This document shows positions 1-17,184 of a stretch of DNA of 23,122 nucleotides, one piece after another (within the stretch, counting starts at the first letter, position 1; each line of letters starts with the position of its first letter). The notes below the pieces were generated by a model. That model had not been told where the DNA came from. It ran no database searches and saw nothing but the letters and a program-made list of their open reading frames with translations. The DNA is from a virus. Its lineage: Duplodnaviria; Heunggongvirae; Uroviricota; Caudoviricetes. Made by a program: the position numbers and the translations under genes. Location: positions 1-23,122 of the IMG/VR virus record IMGVR_UViG_2690316210_000010; one strand, given 5' to 3'.

Positions 1-235
1 ATTCAGCATCCCAGGAATCGAGGGCAGGGCGGGGTATACCAGGTTTATCCTCGCAGACAATAAATTTATAAGCGCAGTCCTGAGCAGCCGGATAATGTTC
101 CAGGAATTGCCAGTGAAATTTTGCGCGGGCGCGGCGTTCGTCGCCGGCTTCAATGGCAGTGGCTACAGGTTTAGCGCCTTCTTCTTTTGTTGCCTTTTCG
201 TCCGGAATGGCGGCGCAAATAAAGACTTTACTCAT
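1..235 (-). CDS. Prophage early-left-operon hypothetical protein, 5' portion only (gene runs off the window start); paralog of 8697..9095, possibly YdfE-like by position
   Basis: Minus-strand ATG at 233-235; about 88% nucleotide identity to 8866-9095; encodes the N-terminus MSKVFICAAIPDEQ... by paralogy. Family not recognised. Confidence 0.5.
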   Translation of the reverse strand, partial: MSKVFICAAIPDEKATKEEGAKPVATAIEAGDERRARAKFHWQFLEHYPAAQDCAYKFIVCEDKPGIPRPALDSWDAE

Positions 236-328
236 TTTGTTTTAACCTCATTACAGATTTAAGGGTGAACAAATCCCTGCCATTGCTGGCATATAAAAAT
301 GAAACCGGATATTTATTACGTGGCTGCT

Positions 329-520
329 TTAAAGACCTGCCGGGACTTCTTTATTATCCTGGTGAATGATTTTATCAACCGGATAACAGTTACCGGGAAT
401 TTTCTGTTCAGCTGCAGCAGCCACGCATTCTTTCATGGAGTTGTATACTCCGGTAACCAGTTCAGCTGGTTCGCCCGTATTAAGAATAACGGTCAGAACG
501 AGTGCAAATGCTGTATTCAT
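329..520 (-). CDS. Small membrane/secreted protein immediately downstream of dicB (YdfD-like by position and length, 63 aa)
   Basis: Start chosen at MNTAFALV (ATG 518-520) overlapping the dicB stop in an ATGA motif, AAGGA Shine-Dalgarno upstream; hydrophobic N-terminus; paralog of 9191..9379. Confidence 0.5.
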   Translation of the reverse strand: MNTAFALVLTVILNTGEPAELVTGVYNSMKECVAAAAEQKIPGNCYPVDKIIHQDNKEVPAGL

Positions 521-705
521 CGCCAGCATCCTTTTTGCATCAGACGCAAACGAGCCAGCATTGAAACAATGCATATTTTATTTAATGACTCCCGTTCGTG
601 TTTTCTCTTGTTAATGGCATCTTCAGTAAATACAGGGTTACTGATAGTGACACCAATTTCAAAACAACCTTCAGACGTATTAACGTTTGGTAATAACGTT
701 TCCAT
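517..705 (-). CDS. dicB: Cell division inhibitor DicB (62 aa)
   Basis: Translation METLLPNVNTSEGCFEIGVTISNPVFTEDAINKRK... matches my recollection of E. coli Qin DicB; GAGGA Shine-Dalgarno upstream; sits downstream of a DicF-like sRNA as in the K-12 dicB operon. Confidence 0.8.
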   Translation of the reverse strand: METLLPNVNTSEGCFEIGVTISNPVFTEDAINKRKHERESLNKICIVSMLARLRLMQKGCWR

Positions 706-715
706 TATCGCGTCC

Positions 716-1273
716 TCAACAATGAATTTTGAGTAATTGCTCTACAGTCATATTTTTAATTGCGCCCCGGTTAACAAGAGTCCATCCCTGTTCTTCCAGA
801 TAAAACCGGAAAGTCTCCATGGTACAGACCCGTGCGCCATCAGGAACGGTTTCGGTGAATCTGATGTTGCCGCGTTCGTCGAAGTGAACAACCAGGGTGC
901 GGCCATCGCCTGGAATTATTTTGTCAGTGGGTGGGGTGTTATTCTGGCGCAGTTCGGCCTCCATGCGATCGAACTCAGCAATGTAGGCTTCTTTAAATGC
1001 AGCGGCTTTTTTGCCAGTGAATCCCATCACCAGGAAAACGAAGCCGTTTTTGGTGATTTGGTACATCGGGCGTTTTTCGCCTTTGGCGTCAGTGTAGGTG
1101 ACGTCCTCAAAATTGAGGGCGTTAAATTCAGGTGAGCATTCAGTATTTGCGATGGCACGTAACACATTGTCGTGACGCTTGCCAAAGAACTCTGCGATCG
1201 CAATAGACGTAGTGACAGCGCGACCATTTTCGATGGTTACGTCAGGGTGAGAAAGGGCAGGGATAGTAGCCAT
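716..1273 (-). CDS. Rha-family phage regulatory protein (antirepressor-like)
   Basis: Start set at MATIPALSHPDVTIENGRAVTTSIAIAEFFGKRHDNVLRAI with GAGGA Shine-Dalgarno; this N-terminal motif is typical of Rha/ORF6N proteins. The ORF track extends to 1570 but that extension overlaps the conserved DicF-flanking repeat. Gene is absent at the equivalent position of P2. Confidence 0.65.
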   Translation of the reverse strand: MATIPALSHPDVTIENGRAVTTSIAIAEFFGKRHDNVLRAIANTECSPEFNALNFEDVTYTDAKGEKRPMYQITKNGFVFLVMGFTGKKAAAFKEAYIAEFDRMEAELRQNNTPPTDKIIPGDGRTLVVHFDERGNIRFTETVPDGARVCTMETFRFYLEEQGWTLVNRGAIKNMTVEQLLKIHC

Positions 1274-1512
1274 GATGGCATCCTCGAGTGATAAGTTAAT
1301 TAACTCACCACCGAGGTTTTCCACGACCATAAGGGTGGTGAGACGTACAGGGGTGGAAATACCGGTCACTCGAGAACCCGGCCAGTCTTGCGACTGCCCT
1401 GCACATCCCACCATAATTTGAATGGAGCTGTGCATTACGCATAAAAAAACCGCTTCAGCGCGGCTATGCGCTCGAGTAACGTTCGGGTTTCCACGCCCGG
1501 CACCCGTTTTAT

Positions 1513-1810
1513 AAGGTGCAGGTGCACTATAATTCCACCCGTTCTGGTTTTCAATAGCTACATTCAACATTTTCTCTTTCCTTTCATCACCGAAGTGAAC
1601 TTTGTTGATGCGGTGCCTGGTGCCTCCAGGTGACGTTAACCAGTTAACAATTAACGCCGGATACAGGGAAACCCATAACCACCCGATACGGGGGAACTAA
1701 TCGCTTTTTAACTGTGCCGCGTGCGCTGAGCCGCATTCACCGCATCACAAAATTCACTTTAAAAAGGGCGGACATCAGCCAGCAATTAAACCGATGCCGC
1801 CAACTGGTAC
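1513..1810. repeat. Direct repeat copy 1 (~300 bp: dicF-dicB intergenic region plus DicF-like gene); near-identical to 3599..3895
   Basis: Visible alignment of 1513-1806 with 3599-3890 with only a few mismatches, diverging at the DicF 5' end; a third, more diverged copy lies at 9590-9800. Confidence 0.8.
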
Positions 1811-1816
1811 TTCACA
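1761..1816 (-). ncRNA. DicF-family sRNA variant (P0)
   Basis: Minus-strand sequence ends ...GGCGGCAUCGGUUUAAUUGCUGGCUGAUGUCCGCCCUUUUU, keeping the DicF GGCGG..CCGCC terminator and U-tail, but the 5' and internal sequence differ from canonical DicF. Ends are approximate. Confidence 0.4.
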
Positions 1817-1879
1817 CAGCAATGTCGTTATTTACAACCGGAGGCGCACTCCCACCATTTAAATTTAACAGACAAGACC

Positions 1880-2517
1880 GGTGATGCTGCCAACTTACTG
1901 ATTTAGTGTATGATGGTGTTTTTGAGGTGCTCCAGTGGCTTCTGTTTCTATCAGCTGTCCCTCCTGTTCAGCTACTGACGGGGTGGTGCGTAACGGCAAA
2001 AGCACTGCCGGACATCAGCGCTATCTCTGCTCTCACTGCCGTAAAACATGGCAACTGCAGTTCACTTACACCGCTTCTCAACCCGGTACGCACCAGAAAA
2101 TCATTGATATGGCCATGAATGGCGTTGGATGCCGGGCAACTGCACGCATTATGGGCGTTGGCCTCAACACGATTTTACGTCACTTAAAAAACTCAGGCCG
2201 CAGTCGGTAACCTCGCGCATACAGCCGGGCAGTGACGTCATCGTCTGCGCGGAAATGGACGAACAGTGGGGCTATGTCGGGGCTAAATCGCGCCAGCGCT
2301 GGCTGTTTTACGCGTATGACAGTCTCCGGAAGACGGTTGTTGCGCACGTATTCGGTGAACGCACTATGGCGACGCTGGGGCGTCTTATGAGCCTGCTGTC
2401 ACCCTTTGACGTGGTGATATGGATGACGGATGGCTGGCCGCTGTATGAATCCCGCCTGAAGGGAAAGCTGCACGTAATCAGCAAGCGATATACGCAGCGA
2501 ATTGAGCGGCATAACCT
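1880..2517 (+). mobile_element. IS1, 3'-truncated (left inverted repeat through mid-insB)
   Basis: Begins with the IS1 terminal repeat GGTGATGCTGCCAACTTACTGATTTAGTGTATGATGG; insA and insB recognisable; IS1 sequence stops after ...GAGCGGCATAACCT, where IS3-family sequence takes over. Confidence 0.85.
1935..2210 (+). CDS. insA: IS1 InsA
   Basis: 91-aa translation [42 protein letters not shown]... matches IS1 InsA. Confidence 0.9.
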
Positions 2518-2701
2518 TTTAGGACAATGGGTTACCGCCGCCAGAAAAGGGCTCGGTACTCCTGGTTCCCGCACGGTGGCTGAACTGGAATCTGAAATTC
2601 TGCAACTGCGTAAGGCGTTAAATGAAGCTCGCCTTGAGCGAGATATATTAAAAAAAGCAACAGCGTATTTTGCACAGGAGTCGCTGAAAAATACGCGTTA
2701 A
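2129..2701 (+). pseudogene. insB: Chimeric ORF: IS1 InsB (first ~129 aa) fused in frame to the C-terminal ~60 aa of an IS3-family OrfA
   Basis: Translation follows InsB up to ...[14 protein letters not shown], then continues [60 protein letters not shown], a typical IS3-family OrfA C-terminus. Confidence 0.75.
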
Positions 2702-3598
2702 TCGAACAATGGCGACAACAATTTCCCATTGAAGCGATGTGTCAGGTATTTGGTGTATCCAGGAGCGGTTATTACAACTGGGTACAGCATGAACCCTCAG
2801 ACAGAAAACAAAGTGATGAGCGGCTAAAACTGGAGATTAAGGTGGCACATATCCGCACTCGCGAAACATATGGAACCCGGCGGCTCCAGACGGAGCTGGC
2901 AGAGAATGGCATCATCGTTGGTCGTGACCGACTGGCACGTCTTCGTAAGGAGCTAAGGCTACGCTGTAAGCAGAAACGCAAGTTCAGAGCGACTACGAAC
3001 TCGAACCACAATCTGCCAGTTGCGCCAAATCTGCTGAACCAGACGTTCGCTCCTACAGCACCAAATCAGGTCTGGGTGGCGGACCTGACGTATGTTGCCA
3101 CACAGGAGGGATGGTTGTACCTCGCTGGCATCAAAGATGTTTATACGTGCGAAATTGTCGGCTACGCCATGGGAGAGCGCATGACAAAAGAGCTGACAGG
3201 TAAAGCCCTGTTTATGGCGCTCAGGAGCCAGCGCCCACCTGCCGGGCTAATCCACCACTCTGATCGAGGTTCACAGTACTGCGCATACGATTACCGGGTC
3301 ATACAGGAGCAGTCTGGTCTGAAAACATCAATGTCGCGTAAAGGTAACTGTTACGACAACGCTCCGATGGAAAGCTTCTGGGGAACGCTGAAAAATGAGA
3401 GCCTGAGCCACTATCGTTTTAATAACCGGGATGAAGCCATCTCAGTAATACGGGAATACATTGAGATTTTCTACAATCGTCAGCGTCGTCACTCTCGTCT
3501 GGGGAATATCTCCCCGGCAGCCTTCAGGGAAAAATATCATCAGATGGCTGCTTAAAAAAAGAACAAATGGTAGTGTCCGCTATTGCCAGTACACCTCA
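2518..3598 (+). mobile_element. IS3-family element (IS600/IS911-like), 5'-truncated, right end intact
   Basis: OrfA C-terminus, A-run slippery motif near 2647-2656, OrfB in the -1 frame, and a right end ...GTACACCTCA consistent with an IS3-family terminal CA. Exact IS name not verified. Confidence 0.7.
2737..3555 (+). CDS. IS3-family transposase OrfB (DDE catalytic domain); coordinates are the first in-frame ATG, natively expressed by -1 frameshift from OrfA
   Basis: 272-aa translation with DDE-transposase hallmarks (...WVADLTYV..., ...HHSDRGSQYCA..., ...CYDNAPMESFWGTLK...). Confidence 0.8.
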   Translation: MCQVFGVSRSGYYNWVQHEPSDRKQSDERLKLEIKVAHIRTRETYGTRRLQTELAENGIIVGRDRLARLRKELRLRCKQKRKFRATTNSNHNLPVAPNLLNQTFAPTAPNQVWVADLTYVATQEGWLYLAGIKDVYTCEIVGYAMGERMTKELTGKALFMALRSQRPPAGLIHHSDRGSQYCAYDYRVIQEQSGLKTSMSRKGNCYDNAPMESFWGTLKNESLSHYRFNNRDEAISVIREYIEIFYNRQRRHSRLGNISPAAFREKYHQMAA

Positions 3599-3895
3599 AA
3601 GGTGCAGGTGCACTATAATTCCACCCGTTCTGGTTTTCAATAGCTACATTCAACATTTTCTCTTTCCTTTCATCACCGAAGTGAACTTTGTTGATGCGGT
3701 GCCTGGTGCCTCCAGGTGACGTTAACCAGTTAACAATTAACGCCGGATACAGGGAAACCCATAACCACCCGATACGGGGGAACTAATCGCTTTTTAACTG
3801 TGCCGCGTGCGCTGAGCCGCATTCACCGCATCACAAAATTCACTTTAAAAAGGGCGGACATCAGCCAGCAATGAAACTGATGCCGCCAAAGGTAC
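3599..3895. repeat. Direct repeat copy 2 (dicF-dicB intergenic region plus DicF-like gene), abutting the IS3-family right end
   Basis: Aligns with 1513-1810; starts immediately after the IS3-family terminus. Confidence 0.8.
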
Positions 3896-3902
3896 CAATC
3901 AA
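3847..3902 (-). ncRNA. DicF-family sRNA variant (P1)
   Basis: Minus strand reads UUGGUACCUUUGGCGGCAUCAGUUUCAUUGCUGGCUGAUGUCCGCCCUUUUU: DicF-like terminator and U-tail with a divergent 5' region. Ends approximate. Confidence 0.4.
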
Positions 3903-4087
3903 CATGGAGTGTTGTGGCGTGGTTGTCACTTAAGCGTATGGTCAACCTGACAACCCGGTGTCCTCAACGGGGAAGGAATAACTCCGCCATACTTACCGCC
4001 GCGTCATTTCGCGTTGTGTGCCTGCTTTTAACCACGTCAGGCGAGGTGGTATCCTTCTTATCCCGAATAACCAAGAAGGAAATCTAT

Positions 4088-4288
4088 ATGACTAAAGAAG
4101 AATTTGTCTCTTATATTTTTGATAAAACGGTTGAAATGTATGCCGCTACTTACGGGTCCTGTAATCCTCTGAATAAACCAGAGGGAAAAGATGATTTCGA
4201 CAAAATTTACCGCTTCTTGGAGGACCGCTATATCAAAAGCTTAGAGGACGCAGGGATCAAATCCCCAGTGAAGTCACCATTGTCCTGA
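4088..4288 (+). CDS. Hypothetical small protein (66 aa) in the variable cassette, antisense to the dicB operon
   Basis: ATG at 4088 with AAGGA Shine-Dalgarno; 3' end overlaps the convergent gene 4257..4634 by 32 nt; no homolog recognised; P2 has an unrelated gene at the same position. Confidence 0.4.
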   Translation: MTKEEFVSYIFDKTVEMYAATYGSCNPLNKPEGKDDFDKIYRFLEDRYIKSLEDAGIKSPVKSPLS

Positions 4289-4634
4289 GAACTTGCAGAA
4301 CGTCATGATCATAACTTCCATCCAAACCGCGACGGCGAATTGCTTCTCGTATTACCGGAAGCAGTTCGCTGGAAATCTCGGTGCATATTTCACCTGATAA
4401 TACGCTTGGCTCAAGTGAGAATATTGGTGAACTTACGGTCTTGGTCTCGACAGTTTCAGAGTCAGTGCCAACATTATAAAGCTCAACGAAAGCGGTCTTG
4501 ATTTTCCGGGCCAGATCTTTTGCTGGCTCGCTTGCAATATCTTTCCCGATTTCTCGCAGCACAGAATGCAATGTATGAGCTGCTGTTTTCTGTACATCAG
4601 ACGGTAAATCTTTAAATTCCATCGTCAGCCTCAT
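4257..4634 (-). CDS. Hypothetical protein (125 aa), variable-cassette gene translationally coupled to the ydfA-like gene
   Basis: Start ATG overlaps the upstream stop (TGATG); first 11 aa MRLTMEFKDLP are identical to the P2 gene 10374..10787, after which the proteins are unrelated. Confidence 0.5.
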   Translation of the reverse strand: MRLTMEFKDLPSDVQKTAAHTLHSVLREIGKDIASEPAKDLARKIKTAFVELYNVGTDSETVETKTVSSPIFSLEPSVLSGEICTEISSELLPVIREAIRRRGLDGSYDHDVLQVLRTMVTSLGI

Positions 4635-4786
4635 CAGTCAGTGTTTCTGGCTAACCAGCAACGCGCGCCAGATTCGGTTTTAAACGTTTTGCTTTTGGTA
4701 TACGTCATGGCGGTAAACGTTCCATCCTGGTTAGGGAACACGCCGCACACCAGAGATTCGTTGTTGCCAAGATCGATAGTATCCAT
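4634..4786 (-). CDS. YdfA/YdaF-like small protein (~50 aa)
   Basis: MDTIDLGNNESLVCGVFPNQDGTFTAMTYTKSKTFKTE... with GAGG Shine-Dalgarno; first gene after the repressor-side promoter, as ydfA/ydaF in Qin/Rac; near-identical paralog at 10787..10939. Confidence 0.6.
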   Translation of the reverse strand: MDTIDLGNNESLVCGVFPNQDGTFTAMTYTKSKTFKTESGARCWLARNTD

Positions 4787-4966
4787 GCTGACCTCATTTC
4801 CCCTTAACGCCGGGGTGGCGGAACAAAAAACCTGCTGCATAGTTAAAGATTGAACCCTGCCGTCATGTTCTTACGCCTCGGGCTGGCTACTTAACCCCTG
4901 ACCACTGTCTGGTAACTCGAAGTATTGCCCTGCATTCTGTGGGGCGGGGTGGGTTGACGCCTGAAA

Positions 4967-5008
4967 CAATAGCATCATTATTTTTTGATGTAAATAGCAT
5001 CGCTATTG
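4967..5008. promoter_or_regulatory. Operator-like inverted repeats (OL-like) of the P1 immunity region
   Basis: AATAGCATCGCTATT (perfect inverted repeat) and a degenerate copy AATAGCATCATTATT; same motif recurs beside the repressor start at 6103-6143. Confidence 0.45.
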
Positions 5009-5024
5009 TTTTTGTTGGGGCAAG

Positions 5025-5050
5025 AAAAAACCACCCTAAGGTGGTTCTGT
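5025..5050 (-). terminator. Rho-independent terminator after the repressor-antitoxin-toxin operon
   Basis: Minus strand reads AACCACC-TTAG-GGTGGTT followed by TTTTTT, just downstream of the ParE-like gene. Confidence 0.6.
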
Positions 5051-5062
5051 CGGCGGGAATAA

Positions 5063-5353
5063 TTAACTGTTTTTGCCTGGATACTGTCTTCGAGAATGCA
5101 CAATATTTACTACTTCTATGCTTGATGCTGTTACTCGGTAAAGGATGATGTAGTTAGGATGAGTTACAATTTCACGAAGACCAAGAACTCGCTCGCTTGG
5201 AGGATACAGGTAAGGATGCTCTGTGAGCGGCAAAACGGATGTTTCAATTCGAATTTTCATTCTGCGTGCTGCCGCGGGATTTTCTTTAGCTATGTAGGCT
5301 ACGATCTGGCGCAAATCATCACGAGCAGATGGTAGCCATAAAACGGGTAACAT
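5063..5353 (-). CDS. ParE/RelE-superfamily type II toxin
   Basis: 96-aa translation MLPVLWLPSARDDLRQIVAYIAKENPAAARRMKIRIE...YIILYRVTASSIEVVNIVHSRRQYP fits the ParE pattern; start overlaps the upstream antitoxin stop (TAATG). Confidence 0.7.
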   Translation of the reverse strand: MLPVLWLPSARDDLRQIVAYIAKENPAAARRMKIRIETSVLPLTEHPYLYPPSERVLGLREIVTHPNYIILYRVTASSIEVVNIVHSRRQYPGKNS

Positions 5354-5547
5354 TATTCACCTCTGTGAGTTGCAGCAGCAATTTGGGCAATAATTTGTTC
5401 CATTTCCGCCATTACCTCATCATGCGGAATCGCCGGGCGGGGATCCGCGAGGCTTGCTGCTACTTTGGCCCGCAGCCATTCGTTGTAACTATTTTCTTGC
5501 TCAACTGTCTCAAATTCTGAAACCATTGGGGAAAGGACTGTACTCAT
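5353..5547 (-). CDS. Type II antitoxin (ParD/CC2985-like) paired with the ParE-like toxin
   Basis: 64-aa acidic protein ...YNEWLRAKVAASLADPRPAIPHDEVMAEMEQII...; AGGAG Shine-Dalgarno; translationally coupled upstream of the toxin. Confidence 0.55.
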   Translation of the reverse strand: MSTVLSPMVSEFETVEQENSYNEWLRAKVAASLADPRPAIPHDEVMAEMEQIIAQIAAATHRGE

Positions 5548-5566
5548 TTTACATATCTCCTCTGAT

Positions 5567-6067
5567 TTAGGCGCGACGGCCTTTTTGTGCAGCTAACCAC
5601 CGCGCAACCGTACGATCCATTGATTCTTTTTTATCTTTCATCTCCTGAAGCATGTGTTCTTGATCTTCTTTCGGAAAAGCTCTGAACGTATGGATTAAAT
5701 CTCGTTCCATCGGCTCTACGGCAAACGGTAGTTCATCCTCTGTTTGTTCTGTGTCTGCTGGTAATGCGACTATGTTATCTTGCTGTGGTTCTCGACAATA
5801 CATCCTTGCAATTTGCAGCAAATCTACCATGTCTGGCCTGATTGACTCAGGGGGAACTTTCAGTAAGCCAGCAAACTTTAGTACAGCCTCAAGGTTTAGT
5901 GGGGTTTGACCATTTAGGTAGTGACTTACCGCCCCTTGTGTTGAAAACCCCATAATTTCCGCCGCACGTTCCTGAGTCAATCCCAACTGAGATTTCTTTG
6001 CCATCCAGATTTCTTTCAGTCTTCTGGCGGCGTTGAGGTCGGTGTCTGACAATGATTTTCTTTTCAT
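5567..6067 (-). CDS. CI-like HTH repressor without a recognisable S24 peptidase domain
   Basis: Start chosen at MKRKSLSDTDLNAARRLKEIWMAKKSQLGLTQERAAEIMGF..., which resembles the lambda CI N-terminal domain; the C-terminus shows no Ser/Lys peptidase motif; divergent from the Cro-like gene. Confidence 0.7.
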   Translation of the reverse strand: MKRKSLSDTDLNAARRLKEIWMAKKSQLGLTQERAAEIMGFSTQGAVSHYLNGQTPLNLEAVLKFAGLLKVPPESIRPDMVDLLQIARMYCREPQQDNIVALPADTEQTEDELPFAVEPMERDLIHTFRAFPKEDQEHMLQEMKDKKESMDRTVARWLAAQKGRRA

Positions 6068-6080
6068 ACATCCAATTCTA

Positions 6081-6146
6081 ATAAGATTGCTAATCACTTT
6101 GAAATAGCATCACTATTTACTTTTAAAAATAACAGTGCTATTAATT
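6081..6146. promoter_or_regulatory. OR-like operator/promoter region between the divergent repressor and Cro-like genes (P1)
   Basis: Operator repeats AATAGCATCACTATT (6103-6117) and AATAACAGTGCTATT (6129-6143); candidate rightward promoter -35 TTTACT (6116-6121), 17-bp spacer, -10 TATTAA (6139-6144). Confidence 0.45.
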
Positions 6147-6178
6147 ATGCATTGGTAACACATCACATAGGGCGGATT

Positions 6179-6442
6179 ATGAATCTTGGAGAATATTTGC
6201 ATCATTTTCATATAACCCAGAGTTCATTTGCTGAGATTGTTGGCGCATCCCAAGGGATGGTCAGCCACGTTATAACGGGGCGTGCAAAACTTACAGGAGA
6301 AAAAATATTACGTTGGTGTGAAGCAACGGGATGGGTGGTGACCCCACATGAGATTGACAGTAAAACCTACCCCAACCCAACTGACGGCTTGCCTGCTGAG
6401 TTTCAGGCTAACACACAACCATCGGCGGGGGTTGATTCATGA
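6179..6442 (+). CDS. Cro/YdaS-like HTH regulator
   Basis: MNLGEYLHHFHITQSSFAEIVGASQGMVSHVITGRAKLTGEKILRWCEATGW...; divergent from the repressor; stop overlaps the next gene start. Confidence 0.6.
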   Translation: MNLGEYLHHFHITQSSFAEIVGASQGMVSHVITGRAKLTGEKILRWCEATGWVVTPHEIDSKTYPNPTDGLPAEFQANTQPSAGVDS

Positions 6443-6864
6443 AAATCAAGCATGAACACATCCGCATGGCGATGAAAGCCTGGGCGCATCCGGACGGTGA
6501 AAAAGTTCCGGCAGCTGAAATAACCAGGGTTTATTTCGAACTGGGAATGACGTTTCCGGTTCTGCATAACGACAGCAAGCACAACACGCTTTATCTCAAC
6601 ACCCAAAAGATTTTCCGTTGGCTGGATAAAGACACCCCTGACGCTGTTGAAAAAATTCAGGCGTTGTTACCTGCGATCGAAAGGGCAATGCCACCTCCGC
6701 TGGTGGCTCGAATGCGCAGCCACAGTTCAGCTTATTTTCGGGAACTGGTGGAGACGCATGAACGACTGGTGAGAGACGCTGATGATTTTGTCGCAGTGGC
6801 AATCGCCGGTTTCAATCAGATGAACCGTGGTGGCCCGGCAGGAAATGCTGTGGCAGTACATTGA
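6439..6864 (+). CDS. YdaT-like protein (141 aa)
   Basis: MKIKHEHIRMAMKAWAHPDGEK...; position after the Cro/YdaS-like gene and length match Rac YdaT; paralog at 11990..12415. Confidence 0.6.
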   Translation: MKIKHEHIRMAMKAWAHPDGEKVPAAEITRVYFELGMTFPVLHNDSKHNTLYLNTQKIFRWLDKDTPDAVEKIQALLPAIERAMPPPLVARMRSHSSAYFRELVETHERLVRDADDFVAVAIAGFNQMNRGGPAGNAVAVH

Positions 6865-6935
6865 CTGACAATAGCCATATCGAATCGCTCCCGGCAACTC
6901 GTGAGTAAAAAGATTCGGTATCAGAAGAGGTGAGT

Positions 6936-7976
6936 ATGGCTAACGCCTGGCTCAGATTATGGCATGACATGCCAAATGACCCTAAGTGGCGAACAATTGC
7001 CAGGGTGTCAGGGCAGCCAATTGCAACAGTGATGGCAGTGTATATCCACCTCCTGGTGAGCGCGTCACGAAATGTCACGCGAGGTCACATTGATGTCACG
7101 ACAGAAGATTTGGCAAGTGCGCTCGACGTGACAGAAGAGGTAATTGATTCAATTTTGCAGACGATGCAGGGGCGGGTACTTGATGGTGATTTAATCACTG
7201 GATGGGAAAAACGCCAGGTGCTTAAAGAGGACAACGGCAATATTTCGCAAACCGCAAAATCTCCTGCAGAGCGCAAGAGGGCGCAGCGAGAGAGGGAAAG
7301 AAAGCGGGAACAAAATGGCGATTGTCACGGCGCGTCACGAAATGTCACGCACATGTCACGACGAGTCACGACAGATACAGATAAAGATACAGATAAAGAA
7401 GATCAAAACACTATGGTCCATGGCGTAAAAAACGCCACGAACCAGGCAGGGGATGTTCAGACCGTCAATCCTGGTCAGCCAGCAGGCTCGACACCGGAAG
7501 CCGATTCGGGCGCTGTGCAGCAGGTGATGACCGCAAGGCCGGAGCAATCACTCCAACTGCAGCAGCCTGAAGCCGATTCCGCCATTCAGCGGGAAGCCGA
7601 TCGGGTAGCCCCGGAAAACACCGGGCAGCCTGTGGGACGAGTGGATTATCCGGATGTGTTCGAACAGGTCTGGCGGGAATACCCGTTGCGTGCCGGGGCA
7701 AACCCGAAGAAATCCGCATTCAGTGCCTGGAAGGCCAGATTGCGCGAGGGGGTGCCACCAGAGACCATGCTGGATGGTGTGAGGCGTTACGCGAGATACC
7801 TGGCGGCGACCGGGAAAGCGGGAACGGAATTTGTTCAGCGAGCGACGACGTTTTTTGGGCCGGACCGGAATTTTGAAAACCCCTGGTTGCTCCCGGTAAG
7901 CGGCACGAACAACCAGCGTTGTGTGAATCATATTTCTGAACCGGATACCGAAATTCCGCCGGGATTCAGGGGGTGA
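6936..7976 (+). CDS. Replication initiator (lambda O / YdaU-like) with embedded origin iterons
   Basis: ATG 6936 with GAGG Shine-Dalgarno; precedes the DnaC-like gene; contains GTCACG iteron arrays; C-terminal 20 aa identical to the otherwise unrelated P2 initiator. Confidence 0.6.
   Translation: MANAWLRLWHDMPNDPKWRTIARVSGQPIATVMAVYIHLLVSASRNVTRGHIDVTTEDLASALDVTEEVIDSILQTMQGRVLDGDLITGWEKRQVLKEDNGNISQTAKSPAERKRAQRERERKREQNGDCHGASRNVTHMSRRVTTDTDKDTDKEDQNTMVHGVKNATNQAGDVQTVNPGQPAGSTPEADSGAVQQVMTARPEQSLQLQQPEADSAIQREADRVAPENTGQPVGRVDYPDVFEQVWREYPLRAGANPKKSAFSAWKARLREGVPPETMLDGVRRYARYLAATGKAGTEFVQRATTFFGPDRNFENPWLLPVSGTNNQRCVNHISEPDTEIPPGFRG
7061..7099. repeat. Iteron set 1: four GTCAC(G) repeats at 10-11-bp phasing inside the O-like gene
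   Basis: GTCAC at 7064, 7074, 7084 and 7095. Confidence 0.6.
7324..7410. repeat. Iteron set 2: five GTCACG repeats at 10-11-bp phasing followed by an AT-rich tract; putative replication origin
   Basis: GTCACG at 7324, 7334, 7344, 7355 and 7365, then ATACAGATAAAGATACAGATAAAGAAGATCAAAACA. Confidence 0.6.
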
Positions 7977-7982
7977 TGTGGC

Positions 7983-8729
7983 ATGAAAAACATTGCGGCA
8001 GCCGGGGTTCTTGAACGTATTCACAGACTTGCACCACAGGGGGCGGTTCCACCGTACCGGACGGTGGAGGAGTGGCGGGAATGGCAACTTGCTGAAGGAC
8101 GAAAACGCAGCGAGGAGATTAACCGCCAGAATCGCCAGTTGCGGGTGGAAAAAATCCTGAATCGTTCGGGCATCCAGCCTCTGCACAGCAAATGCTCGTT
8201 TGCGAATTATCAGGTGCAGAACGACGGGCAAAAATACGCGCTGAGCCAGGCCAAATCCATAGCTGACGAACTGATGACCGGGTGCACGAATTTTGTGTTC
8301 AGCGGTAAAACCGGCACCGGGAAAAATCACCTTGCAGCGGCGATGGGTAACTGGCTGATGGCGAAGGGGCGCAGCGTGATTATCGTCACCGTGTCTGATG
8401 TCATGAGCGTGTTGCATGACAGCTACGACAACGGCAAATCCGGTGAAAAATTTTTACAGGAGCTTTGCGGGGTTGATTTGCTGGTCCTGGATGAAATAGG
8501 CATTCAGCGGGAGACGAAAAACGAGCAGGTGGTATTGCACCAGATAATTGATCGCCGGACAGCATCACTGTGCAGTGTCGGGATGTTAACAAACCTGAAT
8601 CATGCCGCAATGAGTACGCTTCTTGGTGAGAGGATTATGGACCGCATGACCATGAACGGTGGTCGATGGGTGACGTTTAACTGGGATAGCTGGCGTTCAA
8701 ATGTCAGCTTTCCGGGAGTTGTGAAGTAA
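7983..8729 (+). CDS. DnaC-like AAA+ helicase loader (YdaV-like, 248 aa)
   Basis: Walker A FSGKTGTGKNHLAAAMG and Walker B DLLVLDEIG; about 97% identical at protein level to 13407..14153. Confidence 0.8.
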   Translation: MKNIAAAGVLERIHRLAPQGAVPPYRTVEEWREWQLAEGRKRSEEINRQNRQLRVEKILNRSGIQPLHSKCSFANYQVQNDGQKYALSQAKSIADELMTGCTNFVFSGKTGTGKNHLAAAMGNWLMAKGRSVIIVTVSDVMSVLHDSYDNGKSGEKFLQELCGVDLLVLDEIGIQRETKNEQVVLHQIIDRRTASLCSVGMLTNLNHAAMSTLLGERIMDRMTMNGGRWVTFNWDSWRSNVSFPGVVK

Positions 8730-9095
8730 TTTTTGTTGAACCATGACAGCGTTCTGTACTTCAGGGGCCAGCTTGTCAAAAGTGACGTTCATCGGATCTG
8801 ATTCAGTCTCAACCGGGACAAAGGAAGCAGACTCCTCATCCCAGCGGTTTTCCTGCATATATTCAGCATCCCAGGAATCGAGGGCAGGGCGGGGTATACC
8901 GGGTTTATCCTCGCAAACAAGAAATTTATAAGCGCAGTCCTGAGCTGCAGGGAATTGCTCCAGAAATTGCCAATGAAATTTTGCGCGTGCGCGACGCTCA
9001 TCACCGGCTTCAATGGCAGTGGCCACCGCAACAGCGCTATCTTCTTTTATGGCCTGTTCATCAGGAATAGCAGCGCAAATAAAGACCTTACTCAT
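8697..9095 (-). CDS. Prophage early-left-operon hypothetical protein (132 aa), possibly YdfE-like by position; 3' end overlaps the P1 DnaC-like gene
   Basis: Minus-strand ORF MSKVFICAAIPDEQAIKEDSAVAVATAIEAGDERRARAKFHWQFLEQFPAAQD...; last ~11 codons lie antisense inside the DnaC-like 3' end, so the C-terminus may be junction-derived. Confidence 0.5.
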   Translation of the reverse strand: MSKVFICAAIPDEQAIKEDSAVAVATAIEAGDERRARAKFHWQFLEQFPAAQDCAYKFLVCEDKPGIPRPALDSWDAEYMQENRWDEESASFVPVETESDPMNVTFDKLAPEVQNAVMVQQKLLHNSRKADI

Positions 9096-9190
9096 TTTGT
9101 TTTAACCTCATTACAGATTTCAGGGTGAACGAATCCCTGCCATTGCTGGCATTTTTAATCCGTTGGTATGGTGTTAATATGGCTGGAAGG

Positions 9191-9379
9191 TTATCCAGCC
9201 GGTGTTTCGTTATTCAGGTACAGCGATACTTTTTTTAGCGGGAGGCATTCACCAGAAATTTTTTGCTCGTCTCTTGCCTGGAGGCAGGATTCTTTACTTG
9301 CATAAATTCCGGTAATCACATTCTGTGATTCACCCGTTATAAGAAAAACCGTCATCATCAGTGCAAATGCTGAAGTCAT
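9191..9379 (-). CDS. Small membrane protein downstream of dicB (YdfD-like)
   Basis: MTSAFALMMTVFLITGESQNVITGIYASKESCLQARDEQKISGECLP...; start overlaps the dicB-like stop (ATGA); paralog of 329..520. Confidence 0.5.
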   Translation of the reverse strand: MTSAFALMMTVFLITGESQNVITGIYASKESCLQARDEQKISGECLPLKKVSLYLNNETPAG

Positions 9380-9564
9380 TGACGTTCTCCGAAAATACCA
9401 AGTTCAAGAAGAGCAATTCGGGAAAGTATGGAATTATCATTGAGCAGATAAGGCTCATATTTCCTCATATTAATGGCATCTTCAGTAAACTCCCGGTTAC
9501 TGAGCAGAACACCAATATCAAAACAACCTTCAGACGTATTAACGTTTGGTAATAACGTTTCCAT
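9376..9564 (-). CDS. dicB: DicB-like cell division inhibitor with a divergent C-terminal half
   Basis: N-terminal 35 aa METLLPNVNTSEGCFDIGVLLSNREFTEDAINMRK resemble DicB; the C-terminal half differs from the P0 copy. Confidence 0.65.
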   Translation of the reverse strand: METLLPNVNTSEGCFDIGVLLSNREFTEDAINMRKYEPYLLNDNSILSRIALLELGIFGERQ

Positions 9565-9742
9565 TATCGCGTCCTCAACAATGAATTTTGTGATGCAGTG
9601 CCTGGTGCCTCCAGGTGACGTTAACCAGTTAACAATTAACGCCGGGTTAGTTGATGCTCGTTACGCCCGTAAAATACCGCCTTACTGCTTTAACTGTTCC
9701 GCGTGCGCATAGCCGCATTCACCGCATCACAAAATTCACTTT

Positions 9743-9800
9743 AAAAAGGGCGGCAGAGCAGTCACGGAGTAAAACTGATACCGCCAAATGTCACCAGAAA
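9743..9800 (-). ncRNA. dicF: DicF sRNA (canonical-type)
   Basis: Minus strand reads UUUCUGGUGACAUUUGGCGGUAUCAGUUUUACUCCGUGACUGCUCUGCCGCCCUUUUU, matching my recollection of E. coli DicF apart from about one base; located between the ydfA-like/variable genes and dicB as in Qin. Confidence 0.8.
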
Positions 9801-10135
9801 ATTGATAACAGAGGGCGTTGTAGCGGGGTTGTCACTTAAGCGTATGGTCAACCTGACAACCCGGTGCATTTTCTGGAGCAATGGAGGAAACCCCAGCCAT
9901 ACTTACCGCCGCGCCATTTCGCGGAGTGCCACAACCGGAAGCGCACGGTCGAACTAAATTTAACGACACCGTACAGAGAGACCAATTTCGCCGTGCGCTT
10001 TCGCGTTATGCCCTGACTTTTCAGGGACATATCCTTTCAGTAAGCTGTCAGTGCCGGATGCTCACCCGTGTCCGGCGCACGCACTCCACCTGACCCGTGG
10101 AGAACTCCTTAATTACCAACCCTCAGGAGGGTGAA

Positions 10136-10414
10136 ATGGATAAAAAGCAAATTGAGGCCCTGCAATCTATTATTGAAGAACAAGATGAAGCTATCAGGAT
10201 TCTTTCATATCGCACTGATATGATACTAAATATGCTTTCTGCATTAACGGCTGCGCTTGGTGGTACAAAAACAAACGTATACCGCGAAGTTGTTATTCAA
10301 CAGATAGATAAATTTGAAAAAACCATACCAGGTATTAATGCTCATCTTGCAGAACAAGAGAAAGACCATGCTCTTATGGCAATTTCTTCAGTAGCTCTCC
10401 CGAAAGTTGAGTAG
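10136..10414 (+). CDS. Hypothetical protein (92 aa) in the P2 variable cassette, antisense to the dicB operon
   Basis: ATG 10136 with AGGAGG Shine-Dalgarno; MDKKQIEALQSIIEEQDEAIRILSYRTD...; unrelated to the P1 gene at 4088..4288; 3' end overlaps the convergent gene by 41 nt. Confidence 0.4.
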   Translation: MDKKQIEALQSIIEEQDEAIRILSYRTDMILNMLSALTAALGGTKTNVYREVVIQQIDKFEKTIPGINAHLAEQEKDHALMAISSVALPKVE

Positions 10415-10787
10415 TTTTAATTGTTGTTTTGAAATAATCACTGCTTTCACATTTGAGTGATTTCATGGCAATCCAAATGCGGGCCTCTGTGCCTGCATTT
10501 GGTTCCAGTTGCTGTAGACGTTTTGCGTCTTCCAAAAGTAAGGCGATAATGTGTTTCAGCTTCTCATCATTTGCTTGATTCTTGTTTTCAGGCGAATTCT
10601 GTCCGCCGAATAGGCGCTTCTCTTCATACAGACCTATAAAGGCACGACGCACGTTACCGGATATAGTATCGATGGTTTCCTTTTCTACGGTACTCAGGTC
10701 AAGAGTCGCCAGTTGAGAGCGAACCACATTCGATGCCATTTCCTGGAATGGTACTGGTAAATCTTTAAATTCCATCGTCAACCTCAT
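10374..10787 (-). CDS. Hypothetical protein (137 aa), P2 variable-cassette gene coupled to the ydfA-like gene
   Basis: Shares only MRLTMEFKDLP with the P1 gene 4257..4634, then diverges completely; start overlaps the upstream stop. Confidence 0.5.
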   Translation of the reverse strand: MRLTMEFKDLPVPFQEMASNVVRSQLATLDLSTVEKETIDTISGNVRRAFIGLYEEKRLFGGQNSPENKNQANDEKLKHIIALLLEDAKRLQQLEPNAGTEARIWIAMKSLKCESSDYFKTTIKTTQLSGELLKKLP

Positions 10788-10939
10788 CAGTCAGTGTTTC
10801 TGGTTAACCAGCGACGCGCGCCAGCTTCAGTTTTAAACGTTTTGCTTCTGGTATACGTCATCGCGGTGAACGTACCGTCCTGGTTGGGGAACACGCCACA
10901 TACCAGAGATTCGCTGTTGCCAAGATCGATAGTATCCAT
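10787..10939 (-). CDS. YdfA/YdaF-like small protein
   Basis: MDTIDLGNSESLVCGVFPNQDGTFTAMTYTRSKTFKTEAGARRWLTRNTD; near-identical to 4634..4786. Confidence 0.6.
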   Translation of the reverse strand: MDTIDLGNSESLVCGVFPNQDGTFTAMTYTRSKTFKTEAGARRWLTRNTD

Positions 10940-11124
10940 GCTGACCTCATTTCCCCTTAACGCCGGGGTAGCGGAACAAAAACCTGCTGCATAGTTATTA
11001 AAGTTGAACCCTGCCGTCATGTTCTTACGCCTCGGGCTGGCTACTTAACCCCTGACCACTGCCTGGTAACTCGAAGTATTGCCCTGCATTCTGTGGGGCG
11101 GGGTGGGTTGGTATGAAAAGAAGG

Positions 11125-11167
11125 ATACCCATAGGTATTTAAAAAGTAAATACCCATGGGTAAATTT
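11125..11167. promoter_or_regulatory. OL-like operators with candidate leftward early promoter (P2)
   Basis: Palindromes ATACCCATAGGTAT (11125-11138) and TACCCATGGGTA (11151-11162); on the minus strand a TTTACC / 16-17 bp / TTAAAT promoter-like arrangement overlaps them. Confidence 0.45.
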
Positions 11168-11204
11168 TTGCGGTGTCTTAACTGGTGACTAGTTGTTTGG
11201 TGAG

Positions 11205-11624
11205 CTATGATGCGTTTTGTGCTTTCTTTTTACGGATTTCTTCGTAGATCATATTGTAATACTGTTTTTTCTCTTCAAGAGTTTTTAATAATTTATCCGC
11301 TTCACTTTCTGGCAGTTCGTCTAAGAGATCTAAAAAAATACGTTGTCGTGGCGTTAGAACCCTTGTTTCATAACTGGAGGCTGTGTTCGTTGATGATGAA
11401 ACGATACCATCCATCCATCCCCGGGGTAACCCAAAGGACTCTTCGATAATCTCCACCATATCATCAGCGATCCGTTTTTTTCCCTTTTTCCCCTCTGGGT
11501 ACAACATTCTTGATACATAAGAAGGCTCGCGCCCGATCTTTCTGGCCACGTTAACCGCTTTACCATCGCATTTCTCATCACGAATTTTGATGAGTTGCTG
11601 TCGTCTAAATTCATATTTGTCCAT
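11205..11624 (-). CDS. HTH repressor of the P2 immunity region (RacR/DicA-like position)
   Basis: Start chosen at MDKYEFRRQQLIKIRDEKCDGKAVNVARKIGREPSYVSRML... (HTH); divergent from the Cro-like gene; flanked by operator-like repeats. Confidence 0.6.
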   Translation of the reverse strand: MDKYEFRRQQLIKIRDEKCDGKAVNVARKIGREPSYVSRMLYPEGKKGKKRIADDMVEIIEESFGLPRGWMDGIVSSSTNTASSYETRVLTPRQRIFLDLLDELPESEADKLLKTLEEKKQYYNMIYEEIRKKKAQNAS

Positions 11625-11701
11625 AGGTAAATAATAGATGCGATTACCGCAAGGTAAACAACCTGTGGGTATTGACATTTGTTTACCTGTGGGTATTCTT
11701 T
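11623..11701. promoter_or_regulatory. OR-like operators and candidate rightward promoter for the P2 Cro-like gene
   Basis: Repeated TGGGTA-containing half-sites (ACCTGTGGGTAT twice, CATAGGTAAAT); -35 TTGACA (11673-11678), 16-bp spacer, -10 TATTCT (11695-11700). Confidence 0.45.
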
Positions 11702-11724
11702 GCTGTGTTTACTAAGGAGTAGCT

Positions 11725-12006
11725 ATGGAAGAATTAAGAATATTTCTCAATTCTCTTTCGTCAGATGAACAGCGTATGTTTGCATGCGAGTGTGGTACCA
11801 GCATCGGTTATCTAAGAAAGGCATTGAGTAAAGGTCAAGTGTTAGGGGCATCGTTATGTGTCCTTATTGAGCGAGCCAGTAATGGTGAAGTTACACGTCA
11901 GCAACTAAGGCCTTTTGATTGGATGAATATTTGGCCCGAGCTGGAAGATACCAAAACGTTAACACAACCACTTTCTAGGAGCTTGATTCATGAAAATCAA
12001 GCATGA
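11725..12006 (+). CDS. Cro/YdaS-like HTH regulator (P2)
   Basis: AAGGAG Shine-Dalgarno; ...ECGTSIGYLRKALSKGQ...TRQQLRPFDW...; 3' end overlaps the YdaT-like start. Confidence 0.6.
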   Translation: MEELRIFLNSLSSDEQRMFACECGTSIGYLRKALSKGQVLGASLCVLIERASNGEVTRQQLRPFDWMNIWPELEDTKTLTQPLSRSLIHENQA

Positions 12007-12415
12007 ACACATCCGCATGGCGATGAATGCCTGGGCGCGTCCTGATGGCGAAAAAGTTCCAGCAGCTGGAATAACCCAGGCTTATTTTGAGTTGGGTATG
12101 ACGTTCCCAGAACTGTATGACGACAGCCATCCGGAAGCCCTGGCTCGCAATACCCAGAAAATTTTCCGCTGGGTAGAGAAAGACACCCCTGATGCTGTTG
12201 AAAAAATGCAGGCTCTGTTACCGGCGATCGAAAAGGCGATGCCGCCTTTGCTGGTGGCCCGTATGCGCAGCCACAGTTCTGAATATTACCGTGAGATCGT
12301 CGAACGGAGGGATCGGCTGGTGAAGGATGTCGATGATTTTGTTGCGTCAGCGGTTGTTTTGTATGACCAGATGAATCGCGGCGGCCCGGCAGGGAATGCT
12401 GTGGTGATGCACTAA
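11990..12415 (+). CDS. YdaT-like protein (141 aa, P2)
   Basis: MKIKHEHIRMAMNAWARPDGEK...; paralog of 6439..6864. Confidence 0.6.
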   Translation: MKIKHEHIRMAMNAWARPDGEKVPAAGITQAYFELGMTFPELYDDSHPEALARNTQKIFRWVEKDTPDAVEKMQALLPAIEKAMPPLLVARMRSHSSEYYREIVERRDRLVKDVDDFVASAVVLYDQMNRGGPAGNAVVMH

Positions 12416-12437
12416 AAGCACGGTGTTCGGGGGTTTT

Positions 12438-13400: not shown

Positions 13401-13406
13401 CGTGTC

Positions 13407-14153
13407 ATGAAAAACATTGCGGCAGTTGGGGTTCTTGAACGTATTCGCAGACTTGCACCACAGGGGTCGGTTCCACCGTACCGGACGGTGGAGGAGTGGC
13501 GGGAATGGCAACTTGCTGAAGGACGAAAACGCAGCGAGGAGATTAACCGCCAGAATCGCCAGTTGCGGGTGGAAAAAATCCTGAATCGTTCGGGCATCCA
13601 GCCTCTGCACAGCAAATGCTCGTTTGCAAATTATCAGGTGCAGAACGACGGGCAAAAATACGCGCTGAGCCAGGCCAAATCCATAGCTGACGAACTGATG
13701 ACCGGGTGCACGAATTTTGTGTTCAGCGGTAAAACCGGCACCGGGAAAAATCACCTTGCAGCGGCGATGGGCAACCGGCTGATGGTGAAGGGGCGCAGCG
13801 TGATTATCGTCACCGTGTCTGACGTCATGAGCGTGTTGCATGACAGCTACGACAACGGCAAATCCGGTGAAAAATTTTTACAGGAGCTTTGCGGGGTTGA
13901 TTTGCTGGTCCTGGATGAAATAGGCGTTCAGCGGGAGACGAAAAACGAGCAGGTGGTATTGCACCAGATAATTGATCGCCGGACAGCATCACTGTGCAGT
14001 GTCGGGATGTTAACAAACCTGAATCATGCCGCAATGAGTACGCTTCTTGGTGAGAGGATTATGGACCGCATGACCATGAACGGTGGTCGATGGGTGACGT
14101 TTAACTGGGATAGCTGGCGTCCAAATGTCAGCAATATGAGGGTTGTGAAGTAA
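13407..14153 (+). CDS. DnaC-like AAA+ helicase loader (YdaV-like, P2)
   Basis: Walker A and B motifs; near-identical to 7983..8729. Confidence 0.8.
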   Translation: MKNIAAVGVLERIRRLAPQGSVPPYRTVEEWREWQLAEGRKRSEEINRQNRQLRVEKILNRSGIQPLHSKCSFANYQVQNDGQKYALSQAKSIADELMTGCTNFVFSGKTGTGKNHLAAAMGNRLMVKGRSVIIVTVSDVMSVLHDSYDNGKSGEKFLQELCGVDLLVLDEIGVQRETKNEQVVLHQIIDRRTASLCSVGMLTNLNHAAMSTLLGERIMDRMTMNGGRWVTFNWDSWRPNVSNMRVVK

Positions 14154-14174
14154 TTTTGTCCGGAGGAAATTTTA

Positions 14175-16226: not shown

Positions 16227-16453
16227 TTTTATGGGGCACCTTTCTGATTGATTTCATATTGGCGAGGTAAGTAGAATGACTGCGGGTGCTTGAGGCTATC
16301 TGCTTCAGGCATGAACACCAAAAGGCAGATAGAGAAAAGCCCCAGTTAACATTACGCGTCCGGCAAGACGCTTAACATTAATCTGAGGCCAATTTCATGC
16401 TTTGCACATGTAGGTTAGCCTCTTACATGCCGAAAGGCAAGGAGAAGCAGGCT

Positions 16454-17146: not shown

Positions 17147-17184
17147 ACTCCTGCTGTGTAACACCGTGCCACCGGAGAAAGCCG

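Follow-up and report, generated by a model that had tools for sequence, protein, structure and literature searches.

A PaaR-PaaA-ParE-type operon, probably an addiction module, in the immunity region of a defective lambdoid prophage

The window analyzed here is a 23,122-nt stretch of viral DNA (positions 1 to 23,122 of IMG/VR record IMGVR_UViG_2690316210_000010) with two prophage early regions, termed P1 and P2. Directly downstream of the P1 repressor lies a toxin-antitoxin gene pair. We conclude, with a probability of roughly 0.8, that repressor, antitoxin, and toxin form a PaaR-PaaA-ParE three-component type II operon within the immunity region of a defective lambdoid (Qin/CP-933P-like) prophage, and that this operon acts as an addiction module. 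An earlier reading of the same DNA by a model (the original prediction) had placed a ParE/ParD-like pair at 5025-5547, a span that coincides exactly with the antitoxin, the toxin, and their terminator in the coordinates of the open reading frame (ORF) list. That list gives three consecutive genes on the minus strand, from 6067 to 5063, in the order repressor, antitoxin, toxin. The parts of the operon are as follows.

5567..6067, minus strand: immunity repressor, 166 aa, ATG at 6067
5548..5566, minus strand: repressor-antitoxin spacer, 19 nt, with a GAGGAG ribosome-binding site
5353..5547, minus strand: PaaA-family antitoxin, 64 aa, Pfam PaaA2
5063..5353, minus strand: ParE-family toxin, 96 aa, Pfam ParE_toxin
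5021..5049, minus strand: intrinsic terminator from RNA folding, predicted to end the repressor-antitoxin-toxin transcript as an analogue of timm

The toxin aligned with Pfam ParE_toxin (PF05016) at an expectation value (E) of 1.8e-17, with residues 4-91 covering positions 1-89 of the 89-position profile, and with PDB chain 5cw7_B, ParE2 of Escherichia coli O157:H7, at E 7e-37 and 67% identity over 92 aa. With this full-length profile match and a structural relative, it belongs to the ParE2 subgroup of the ParE/RelE superfamily, and the residues invariant across the ParE family are kept. We also found a borderline match to NCBIfam RelE_StbE (29.3 bits against a cut-off of 27.9), so that sequence alone does not settle the activity of the toxin. 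O157 ParE2 induces the SOS response (PMC8630535), and if the window ParE behaves like this homologue, it would poison the cell by DNA damage and SOS induction and not by cutting mRNA.

For the antitoxin, we obtained matches to Pfam PaaA2 (PF21217; E 3e-23, 33 of 33 profile positions), to NCBIfam TA_RelB_antitoxin (NF050103; E 3e-27, 94 bits against a cut-off of 50), and to the PaaA2 chains of PDB entries 3zbe and 5cw7 (E 1.4e-23). It is 75% identical to O157 PaaA2 over 56 aa. PaaA2 was its sole Pfam match at E<=0.01, and neither a ribbon-helix-helix nor any other DNA-binding domain was detected. A canonical ParD antitoxin is ruled out, since no ParD or ribbon-helix-helix family in Pfam or NCBIfam matched at E<=0.01. 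The conserved-domain search that the original prediction had proposed as its own check therefore upheld a ParE-like toxin with a cognate antitoxin, through the Pfam ParE_toxin and PDB ParE2 matches, and replaced its ParD half with the PaaA2 family. The lack of a DNA-binding domain in the antitoxin implies that the upstream repressor acts as the third, regulatory component.

Both the toxin and the antitoxin genes are under strong purifying selection. The dN/dS (nonsynonymous-to-synonymous rate ratio) of the antitoxin was about 0.08-0.10 against paralogous cassettes. When the pair was compared with the allele of L008, one of the loci that we retrieved, the nonsynonymous value (pN) was 0.09-0.12 and the synonymous value (pS) 0.58-0.71, with 0.115 and 0.713 for the toxin. 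A pN so far below pS indicates that both genes are maintained as proteins.

The arrangement of the three genes is that of a PaaR-type operon: a helix-turn-helix (HTH) gene stands directly 5′ of an antitoxin-toxin pair on the same strand, with a 19-nt gap, a TAATG junction, and a terminator that follows the toxin but none within the operon. In the gap, the GAGGAG ribosome-binding site lies 8 nt 5′ of the antitoxin ATG; we found no hairpin there, and the consensus scan reported no minus-strand terminator-like site. The antitoxin stop and the toxin start share the TAATG overlap, which suggests translational coupling. From the repressor to the toxin there is no intervening terminator or convincing promoter. 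A longer repressor ORF (6097..5567) opens with GTG and would extend into the promoter/operator region; the public annotation gives the 166-aa product starting at ATG 6067.

Downstream of the toxin, RNA folding of 5070..5010 yielded a 9-bp stem, AGAACCACC/GGUGGUUUU, whose core, AACCACC-UUAG-GGUGGUU, runs into UUUUCUU on the minus strand alone. It folds with a dG of -15.1 kcal/mol (z -2.7), a value equaled by 1 of 200 shuffles. This terminator was missed by the simple consensus scanner and emerged from the folding. Hence the placement of the pair directly behind the repressor on the same strand, as originally predicted, was confirmed by the 19-nt, terminator-free gap, and the predicted terminator was recovered as the hairpin and T-run at 5049..5021. 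From this layout and from the O157:H7 homologue, which is transcribed as an operon from a promoter upstream of paaR (Hallez 2010, as summarized in PMC4803016 and PMC8630535), we infer that repressor, antitoxin, and toxin are co-transcribed.

The N-terminal domain of the repressor matched Pfam HTH_3 (E 9e-9) and the lambda CI N-terminal domain (E 2.5e-9). Its homology to PaaR2 is limited to the C-terminal ~45 aa: the last 44 residues are 52% identical to the O157 PaaR2 C-terminal domain (E 6e-14). This C-terminal domain is also weakly similar to DicA (29% identity), and the whole protein is 38% identical to the L008 regulator. A sequence search of the PDB for a solved PaaR2 structure, intended for comparison with the C-terminal domain, returned none. 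No S24/LexA-like peptidase domain was found in the repressor, from which we predict that the prophage is not SOS-inducible.

The operon is embedded in a lambdoid immunity region, whose remaining elements are listed here with the right and left operators abbreviated OR and OL.

6103..6142, no strand assigned: OR, operator 15-mers at 6103-6117 (AATAGCATCACTATT) and 6128-6142 (AATAACAGTGCTATT)
4968-4982 and 4993-5007, minus strand: OL operators, overlapping the PL-like promoter
6075..6103, minus strand: PRM-like promoter, TTCAAA-17-TAGAAT, predicted by consensus scan
4994..4966, minus strand: PL-like promoter, TTTACA-17-TATTGT with extended-10 TG, reading toward ydfA, predicted by consensus scan
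4634..4786, minus strand: ydfA (DUF1391; Pfam E 3e-28), first gene of the leftward PL-type operon
6179..6442, plus strand: Cro-like, YdaS-type HTH regulator (Pfam HTH_3, E 5e-4), divergent from the repressor
6439..6864, plus strand: YdaT, CII analogue (Pfam YdaT_toxin, E 5e-9)

Read from the left, the order is OL/PL, terminator, ParE, PaaA, repressor, PRM/OR/PR, cro, and the CII analogue, with ydfA marking the end of the immunity cassette. Repressor and cro diverge across the operators and the same operators recur at the leftward promoter, as in lambdoid immunity regions. OR falls within the 111 bp that separate the start codons (ATG) of the repressor and the cro-like gene. The operators are of the type AATAGC-ATC-RCTATT (AATAGC-N3-GCTATT), and both pairs, at OR and at OL, are spaced 25 bp start-to-start. 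When up to 3 mismatches were allowed, the motif matched 8 times over the two strands against 1.0 expected, a count attained in 0 of 100 shuffles. Within the 23 kb, strong sites are confined to OR and OL, where they bracket the operon, and the 47-nt OR and OL modules are 72% identical. The -10 of the PRM-like promoter ends 7 nt before the repressor ATG at 6067, which predicts a leaderless repressor mRNA.

Rightward, the cro-like gene is annotated in E. coli as a 264-nt HTH gene and is 45% identical to that of L008, and YdaT is 77% identical to CP-933P YdaT. The YdaT operator TTGATTCATGAAAATCAA lies at the ydaS/ydaT junction (6432-6449), with 0 mismatches to the published consensus TTGATTN6AATCAA (PMC9986795). 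This junction is the expected site of a PRE-like promoter that would read into the repressor-toxin-antitoxin operon.

The second early region offers an internal comparison. P1 and P2 of the original prediction are not phages P1 and P2; the window holds two paralogous lambdoid early regions in tandem and in the same orientation, at 1-8733 and 8861-14157, and the pair occurs only in the first. The second repressor runs from 11624 to 11205, and its operators are of the type ATACCCAYRGGTAT, unlike those of the first region, with 6 matches against 0.22 expected (OR at 11659-11696, OL at 11125-11163). Its OL sites, 11125-11138 and 11150-11163, begin 42 nt past the repressor stop, and no toxin-antitoxin genes lie between that stop and OL. 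This 42-nt gap agrees with the earlier claim that P2 has no insertion and that operators follow its repressor directly. Homology between the two regions ends at 4956 on the left and restarts at 6432 (ydaT, 78%).

We observed four direct repeats between the regions: 1-731/8861-9590 (75%), 4603-4956/10756-11110 (94% DNA identity, spanning ydfA), 6432-6853/11983-12404 (78%), and 7914-8733/13338-14157 (97%). The YdaT of the second region is 96% identical to CP-933P YdaT. Identical perfect YdaT operators, TTGATTCATGAAAATCAA, stand at 6432-6449 and 11983-12000 despite heteroimmune repressors and cro genes, and by this sharing a CII-like activator may cross-activate both PRE-like promoters. The second repeat, a 356-bp direct repeat, flanks the pair-bearing immunity region. 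A recombination event between its copies would remove the pair and, under the addiction model, kill the recombinant. The tandem of one region with and one without the cassette is thus a convenient setting for the hypothesis that such modules guard immunity regions from recombinational loss. Other Shigella sonnei genomes are 99.2-99.3% identical to the window over 4125-8738 and then diverge from it. That they are simple deletion derivatives of the tandem is unsupported, as they are only 95% and 87% identical to the P2-side segments of the window.

The gene identities, order, and spacing, the terminator, the flanking operators, the purifying selection, and the empty paralogous site were all computed or observed in the window, and the mechanism that we propose on this basis is as follows. 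While the prophage is repressed ("lysogenic"), OR and OL would be occupied by the CI-type repressor, which would thereby silence the cro/ydaT and the leftward ydfA operons. The PRM-like promoter would then give a single, probably leaderless, repressor-PaaA-ParE transcript ending at the terminator before OL/PL. PaaA, having no DNA-binding domain, would only neutralize ParE, presumably by wrapping around it, so that transcription control would be delegated to the phage repressor, the Cro-like YdaS, and the CII-like YdaT at the PRE-like promoter. Deletion across the flanking repeats, recombinational exchange with a heteroimmune phage, or excision could remove or replace the immunity segment. If PaaA is labile and ParE stable, such an event would stop the antitoxin supply and lead to ParE poisoning, DNA damage, and SOS induction, and the pair would in this way serve as an addiction module stabilizing the immunity region.

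The lability of PaaA, the toxicity of ParE, and post-segregational killing are in this scheme carried over by analogy from the O157:H7 homologue. There, PaaA2 has no DNA-binding domain and is degraded by ClpAP/ClpXP (PMC8630535), the locus stabilizes an unstable plasmid by post-segregational killing (PMC8630535, PMC4803016), and the pair has been proposed to be an insertion into the immunity region that protects it against rearrangement or replacement (PMC8630535).

Several points weigh against this interpretation. In CP-933P, ParE2 activity was undetectable in both transcriptional states and the biological role was described as open, and the molecular target of ParE2 is still unidentified (PMC8630535). 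The window toxin is only 67% identical to ParE2 and the O157 paralogues do not cross-neutralize, so the properties of ParE2 may not transfer. The N-terminal DNA-binding domain of the repressor is unrelated in sequence to that of PaaR2 and the operators are unlike those of CP-933P, so that the proposed regulation follows from architecture and not from DNA-binding homology. Lastly, the promoter scan total is at chance (4 found, 3.5 expected).

To see how the cassette is distributed, we turned to related loci. Toxin, antitoxin, and repressor were each found with identical sequence on at least 1000 public contigs, most of them named as Shigella sonnei (these counts are lower bounds), and the exact toxin protein is entered in 6211 index blocks. 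The window most probably comes from Shigella sonnei itself or from a very near relative. At least 80% of window 4600-6500 is carried by 72 of 5426 complete E. coli genomes (best matches 98% identical), in which the genes are annotated as HTH, RelB-family antitoxin, RelE-ParE toxin, DUF1391, and YdaT. A further allele, 88% identical to ParE2 (locus L011), was matched by 644 genomes, O157:H7 strains included, mostly over the antitoxin-toxin part only. The 80%-identical allele (L008/P0015) matched 117 complete E. coli genomes; its equation with O157 ParE1 is unsupported, none of the 25 listed being O157:H7. Among E. coli matches H74-H78, an L008-type repressor and the antitoxin are kept and similarity is lost over the toxin; at these loci the antitoxin could be an orphan (anti-addiction), or the toxin allele could have been swapped. 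Among 50,697 phage records, one has a PaaR2-like gene together with PaaA and ParE, that of Escherichia phage Evi (L095, LR597642.1). In Evi, PaaA is annotated as hypothetical and the ParE ORF (24917-25192), 67% identical to the window toxin, is unannotated.

All enteric loci retrieved have YdaT and a cro-like gene, then the divergent HTH repressor, PaaA, and ParE. In most, DUF1391/ydfA and DicB come next; exceptions are the CP-933P locus (L094), which shows no DUF1391, L012, which stops at the toxin, and Evi, which has Kil for DicB. In a scan of one genome per species, the ParE clade was widespread in Alpha-, Beta-, and Gammaproteobacteria. A PaaA-like ORF was present in 90 of 93 loci, and the PaaR-type C-terminal domain only in the 13 enteric ones. 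In non-enteric Proteobacteria (L014-L093), PaaA and ParE stand as free two-gene cassettes, and when 47 ORFs upstream of non-enteric loci were compared with Pfam, they gave unrelated housekeeping families and no conserved regulator. Taken together, the wide two-gene occurrence and the enteric-only PaaR-type domain indicate an ancient, mobile two-gene PaaA-ParE cassette; that a phage repressor came to precede it is an enteric lambdoid specialty, and one already published.

DNA homology to L008 and L011 forms one block, from 5692 in the repressor C-terminal domain through the pair and OL to 4643 in ydfA, and is missing over 6368..5692 (HTH domain, OR, and cro N terminus). Because the block spares HTH, OR, and cro, the same cassette appears joined to several immunity specificities, and its start in the repressor C-terminal domain suggests that it moves as one unit. 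The pair stands behind four repressor N-terminal domains, those of the window, L008 (135 aa), L011 (153 aa), and CP-933P, and L011 carries an extra 123-aa PaaR2-like gene. Linked as it is to a lambda-CI-like domain, to PaaR2, and to other HTH types, the cassette is common to heteroimmune prophages.

Compatible with addiction, though to our minds a minority candidate, is a RexAB-like abortive-infection or superinfection-exclusion module that would be co-expressed with the repressor in the lysogen, in which infection depletes labile PaaA through host transcription shut-off or protease activation and the ParE so released kills the cell or halts its growth ahead of replication of the invading phage. 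The pair occupies the rexAB slot, between a cI-type gene and the equivalents of timm and OL (PMC9986795), and is a repressor-linked "moron" missing from the paralogous immunity region; type II systems are increasingly found to act against phages. Against this, the likeness to RexA and RexB is positional only, as there is no sequence relation (the Pfam matches of the pair are ParE_toxin and PaaA2 only). None of the three proteins, repressor, antitoxin, or toxin, matches any PADLOC-DB v2 model (0/3), and a recognized anti-phage defense system was rejected on that count. Moreover, in PMC8630535, PMC9986795, and PMC4803016 the homologue is described as addictive, with no phage phenotype reported, and the one literature search that covered "phage defense" gave no report of PaaA-ParE exclusion. 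We likewise consider improbable the joint reading that the pair has the role of a RexAB replacement and that the cassette moves between heteroimmune prophages as a unit with the repressor C-terminal domain.

We regard it as very unlikely that the pair is an autonomous parDE-type module that merely adjoins the repressor, transcribed from its own promoter in the repressor 3′ end and autoregulated by the antitoxin-toxin complex. Such a module would be workable without a PaaR-type regulator, as PaaA and ParE stand free behind isocitrate dehydrogenase, MutS, and AdoHcyase outside Enterobacteriaceae. The PaaA-ParE complex gives partial repression according to Hallez 2010 (summarized in PMC4803016), and the consensus scan found a weak promoter-like site inside the repressor gene (5980..5952). 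The antitoxin, however, has no detectable DNA-binding domain, the 19-nt gap after the repressor stop holds just a ribosome-binding site, and allele homology is continuous from the repressor C-terminal domain through the pair (5692..4643). The repressor-antitoxin-toxin order is kept in every enteric locus retrieved, and the paaR promoter drives co-transcription of the homologue (PMC4803016). Least probable of all is an inert relic in a defective prophage riddled with insertion sequences (IS). The prophage is degraded, elements of IS1 and the IS3 family having inserted at about 1900-3560 and the early regions being duplicated and rearranged, and some E. coli genomes (H74-H78) retain repressor and antitoxin with similarity lost over the toxin. 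Yet both ORFs are full-length and align end-to-end with crystallized proteins, family-invariant residues are retained, pN is far below pS, and the exact proteins are conserved on at least 1000 contigs each.

Elsewhere in the window, we observed a ~2181-bp unit in three head-to-tail copies (17168-22663, 98-99% identity), each combining genes for DUF1367 and a ybcO-type nuclease with a DUF1133 (Q-like) gene that an IS3-family transposase interrupts or is fused to; the triplication may reflect either a genuine amplification associated with IS elements or an artifact of assembly. Near the left end, a Rha/Ash-family antirepressor-like gene (716-1570, minus strand) overlaps Rfam matches to C4 antisense RNA (76.7 bits) and isrK (61 bits), with the two matches lying at 1331-1418 and 1443-1519 on the minus strand, and on this basis it looks like an antisense-controlled antirepressor module of the P1/P7 immI type. 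A 291-bp direct repeat (1513-1803/3599-3889, 99.3% identity) brackets a cluster of IS1/IS3-family elements (IS genes 1935-3555), within which ORF 2129-2701 holds IS1 DDE and HTH_Tnp_1 segments, that is, nested or chimeric IS elements. Of the two immunity regions, just the second has the DicF small RNA (9748-9799, minus strand) downstream of it; the left arm of the first is truncated by IS elements. Further right are a gene for epoxyqueuosine reductase QueH (15540-16226, plus strand; Pfam E 2e-65) in the late-early region of the prophage and the sok antisense RNA of a hok/sok type I toxin-antitoxin system (16284-16459, plus strand).

Among known systems, the lambda PRM-cI-rexA-rexB-timm operon shares with the window the placement of accessory genes on what would be the lysogen transcript of the repressor, between repressor and terminator before OL/PL, and a homologous repressor N-terminal domain. 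The original prediction had likened the position to that of lambda rexAB, and the pair does sit between repressor and OL/PL. In contrast to lambda, PaaA and ParE have no homology to RexA and RexB, the window repressor has no C-terminal S24 autocleavage domain as CI does, and PaaA-ParE has so far been shown only as addictive, whereas RexAB is an exclusion system.

The K-12 Qin region dicC/dicA-ydfABC-dicF-dicB belongs to the same prophage lineage, with 90% DNA identity in ydfA and a DicA-like C-terminal domain in the window repressor. It differs in that dicA is followed by ydfA after 166 bp with no toxin-antitoxin pair, "empty" like the second region of the window. In other Shigella sonnei genomes with the same toxin, the locus has ynfGH-dmsD-clcB as neighbors, genes that adjoin Qin on the K-12 map. 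ParE(SO)/CopA(SO) of prophage CP4So in Shewanella oneidensis is another prophage-borne ParE-family pair and reportedly stabilizes its prophage; its antitoxin is said to be of a different family and the pair to lie outside the repressor operon of an immunity region. With canonical ParD-ParE systems (RK2 parDE; Vibrio cholerae parDE2), the window pair shares the ParE/RelE fold (PF05016), the antitoxin-first order, translational coupling, and addiction behavior, the last two as predicted here. It differs in that its antitoxin has no ribbon-helix-helix, a separate regulator replaces antitoxin autoregulation, and gyrase is not established as the target of ParE2.

The closest relative is paaR2-paaA2-parE2 of CP-933P/Sp12 (Jurėnas 2021, PMC8630535; 3ZBE, 5CW7), a member of the paaR-paaA-parE three-component type II class that was discovered in E. 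coli O157:H7 (Hallez 2010, summarized in PMC4803016). In CP-933P, PaaR2 serves as the functional CI, with YdaS as the counterpart of Cro and YdaT as that of CII, and PL/OL were demonstrated beyond the toxin-antitoxin genes; experiments in the same study showed paaR2 and cI transcripts to be leaderless (PMC8630535). In this prophage, paaA2-parE2 replace rexA and rexB, and YdaT activates PRE (PMC9986795). We retrieved this locus, whose regulator begins MQKKE as published. It has the same regulator-PaaA-ParE order in an immunity region, divergent from ydaS (cro-like) and ydaT (cII-like), with OL/PL beyond the toxin, a YdaT operator at the ydaS/ydaT junction, and the leaderless PRM geometry that is predicted in the window. 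In both, the antitoxin has no DNA-binding domain and the repressor no RecA-cleavable peptidase domain.

The two loci differ in the repressor, which in the window has 166 aa and a lambda-CI-like N-terminal domain and in PaaR2 has 123 aa, and in the operators, which are two AATAGC-N3-GCTATT 15-mers each at OR and OL in the window and GTTTAGTAA-type repeats in CP-933P. The operator difference implies a different immunity specificity. In addition, the C-terminal tail of the window antitoxin and the N-terminal hairpin of the toxin group with L008 (85% and 80% identity) and not with PaaA2/ParE2. Because the window pair falls in this separate allele group and PaaA1/ParE1 and PaaA2/ParE2 do not cross-neutralize (PMC4803016), we expect it to have a specificity separate from that of PaaA2/ParE2. 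The gene arrangement is already described in the literature, and the window locus is a further, heteroimmune copy of a known system that leaves current understanding unchanged. Its practical value is annotation: the proper label should be a PaaR-type repressor/PaaA/ParE three-component system, neither "ParD/ParE" nor "RelB".

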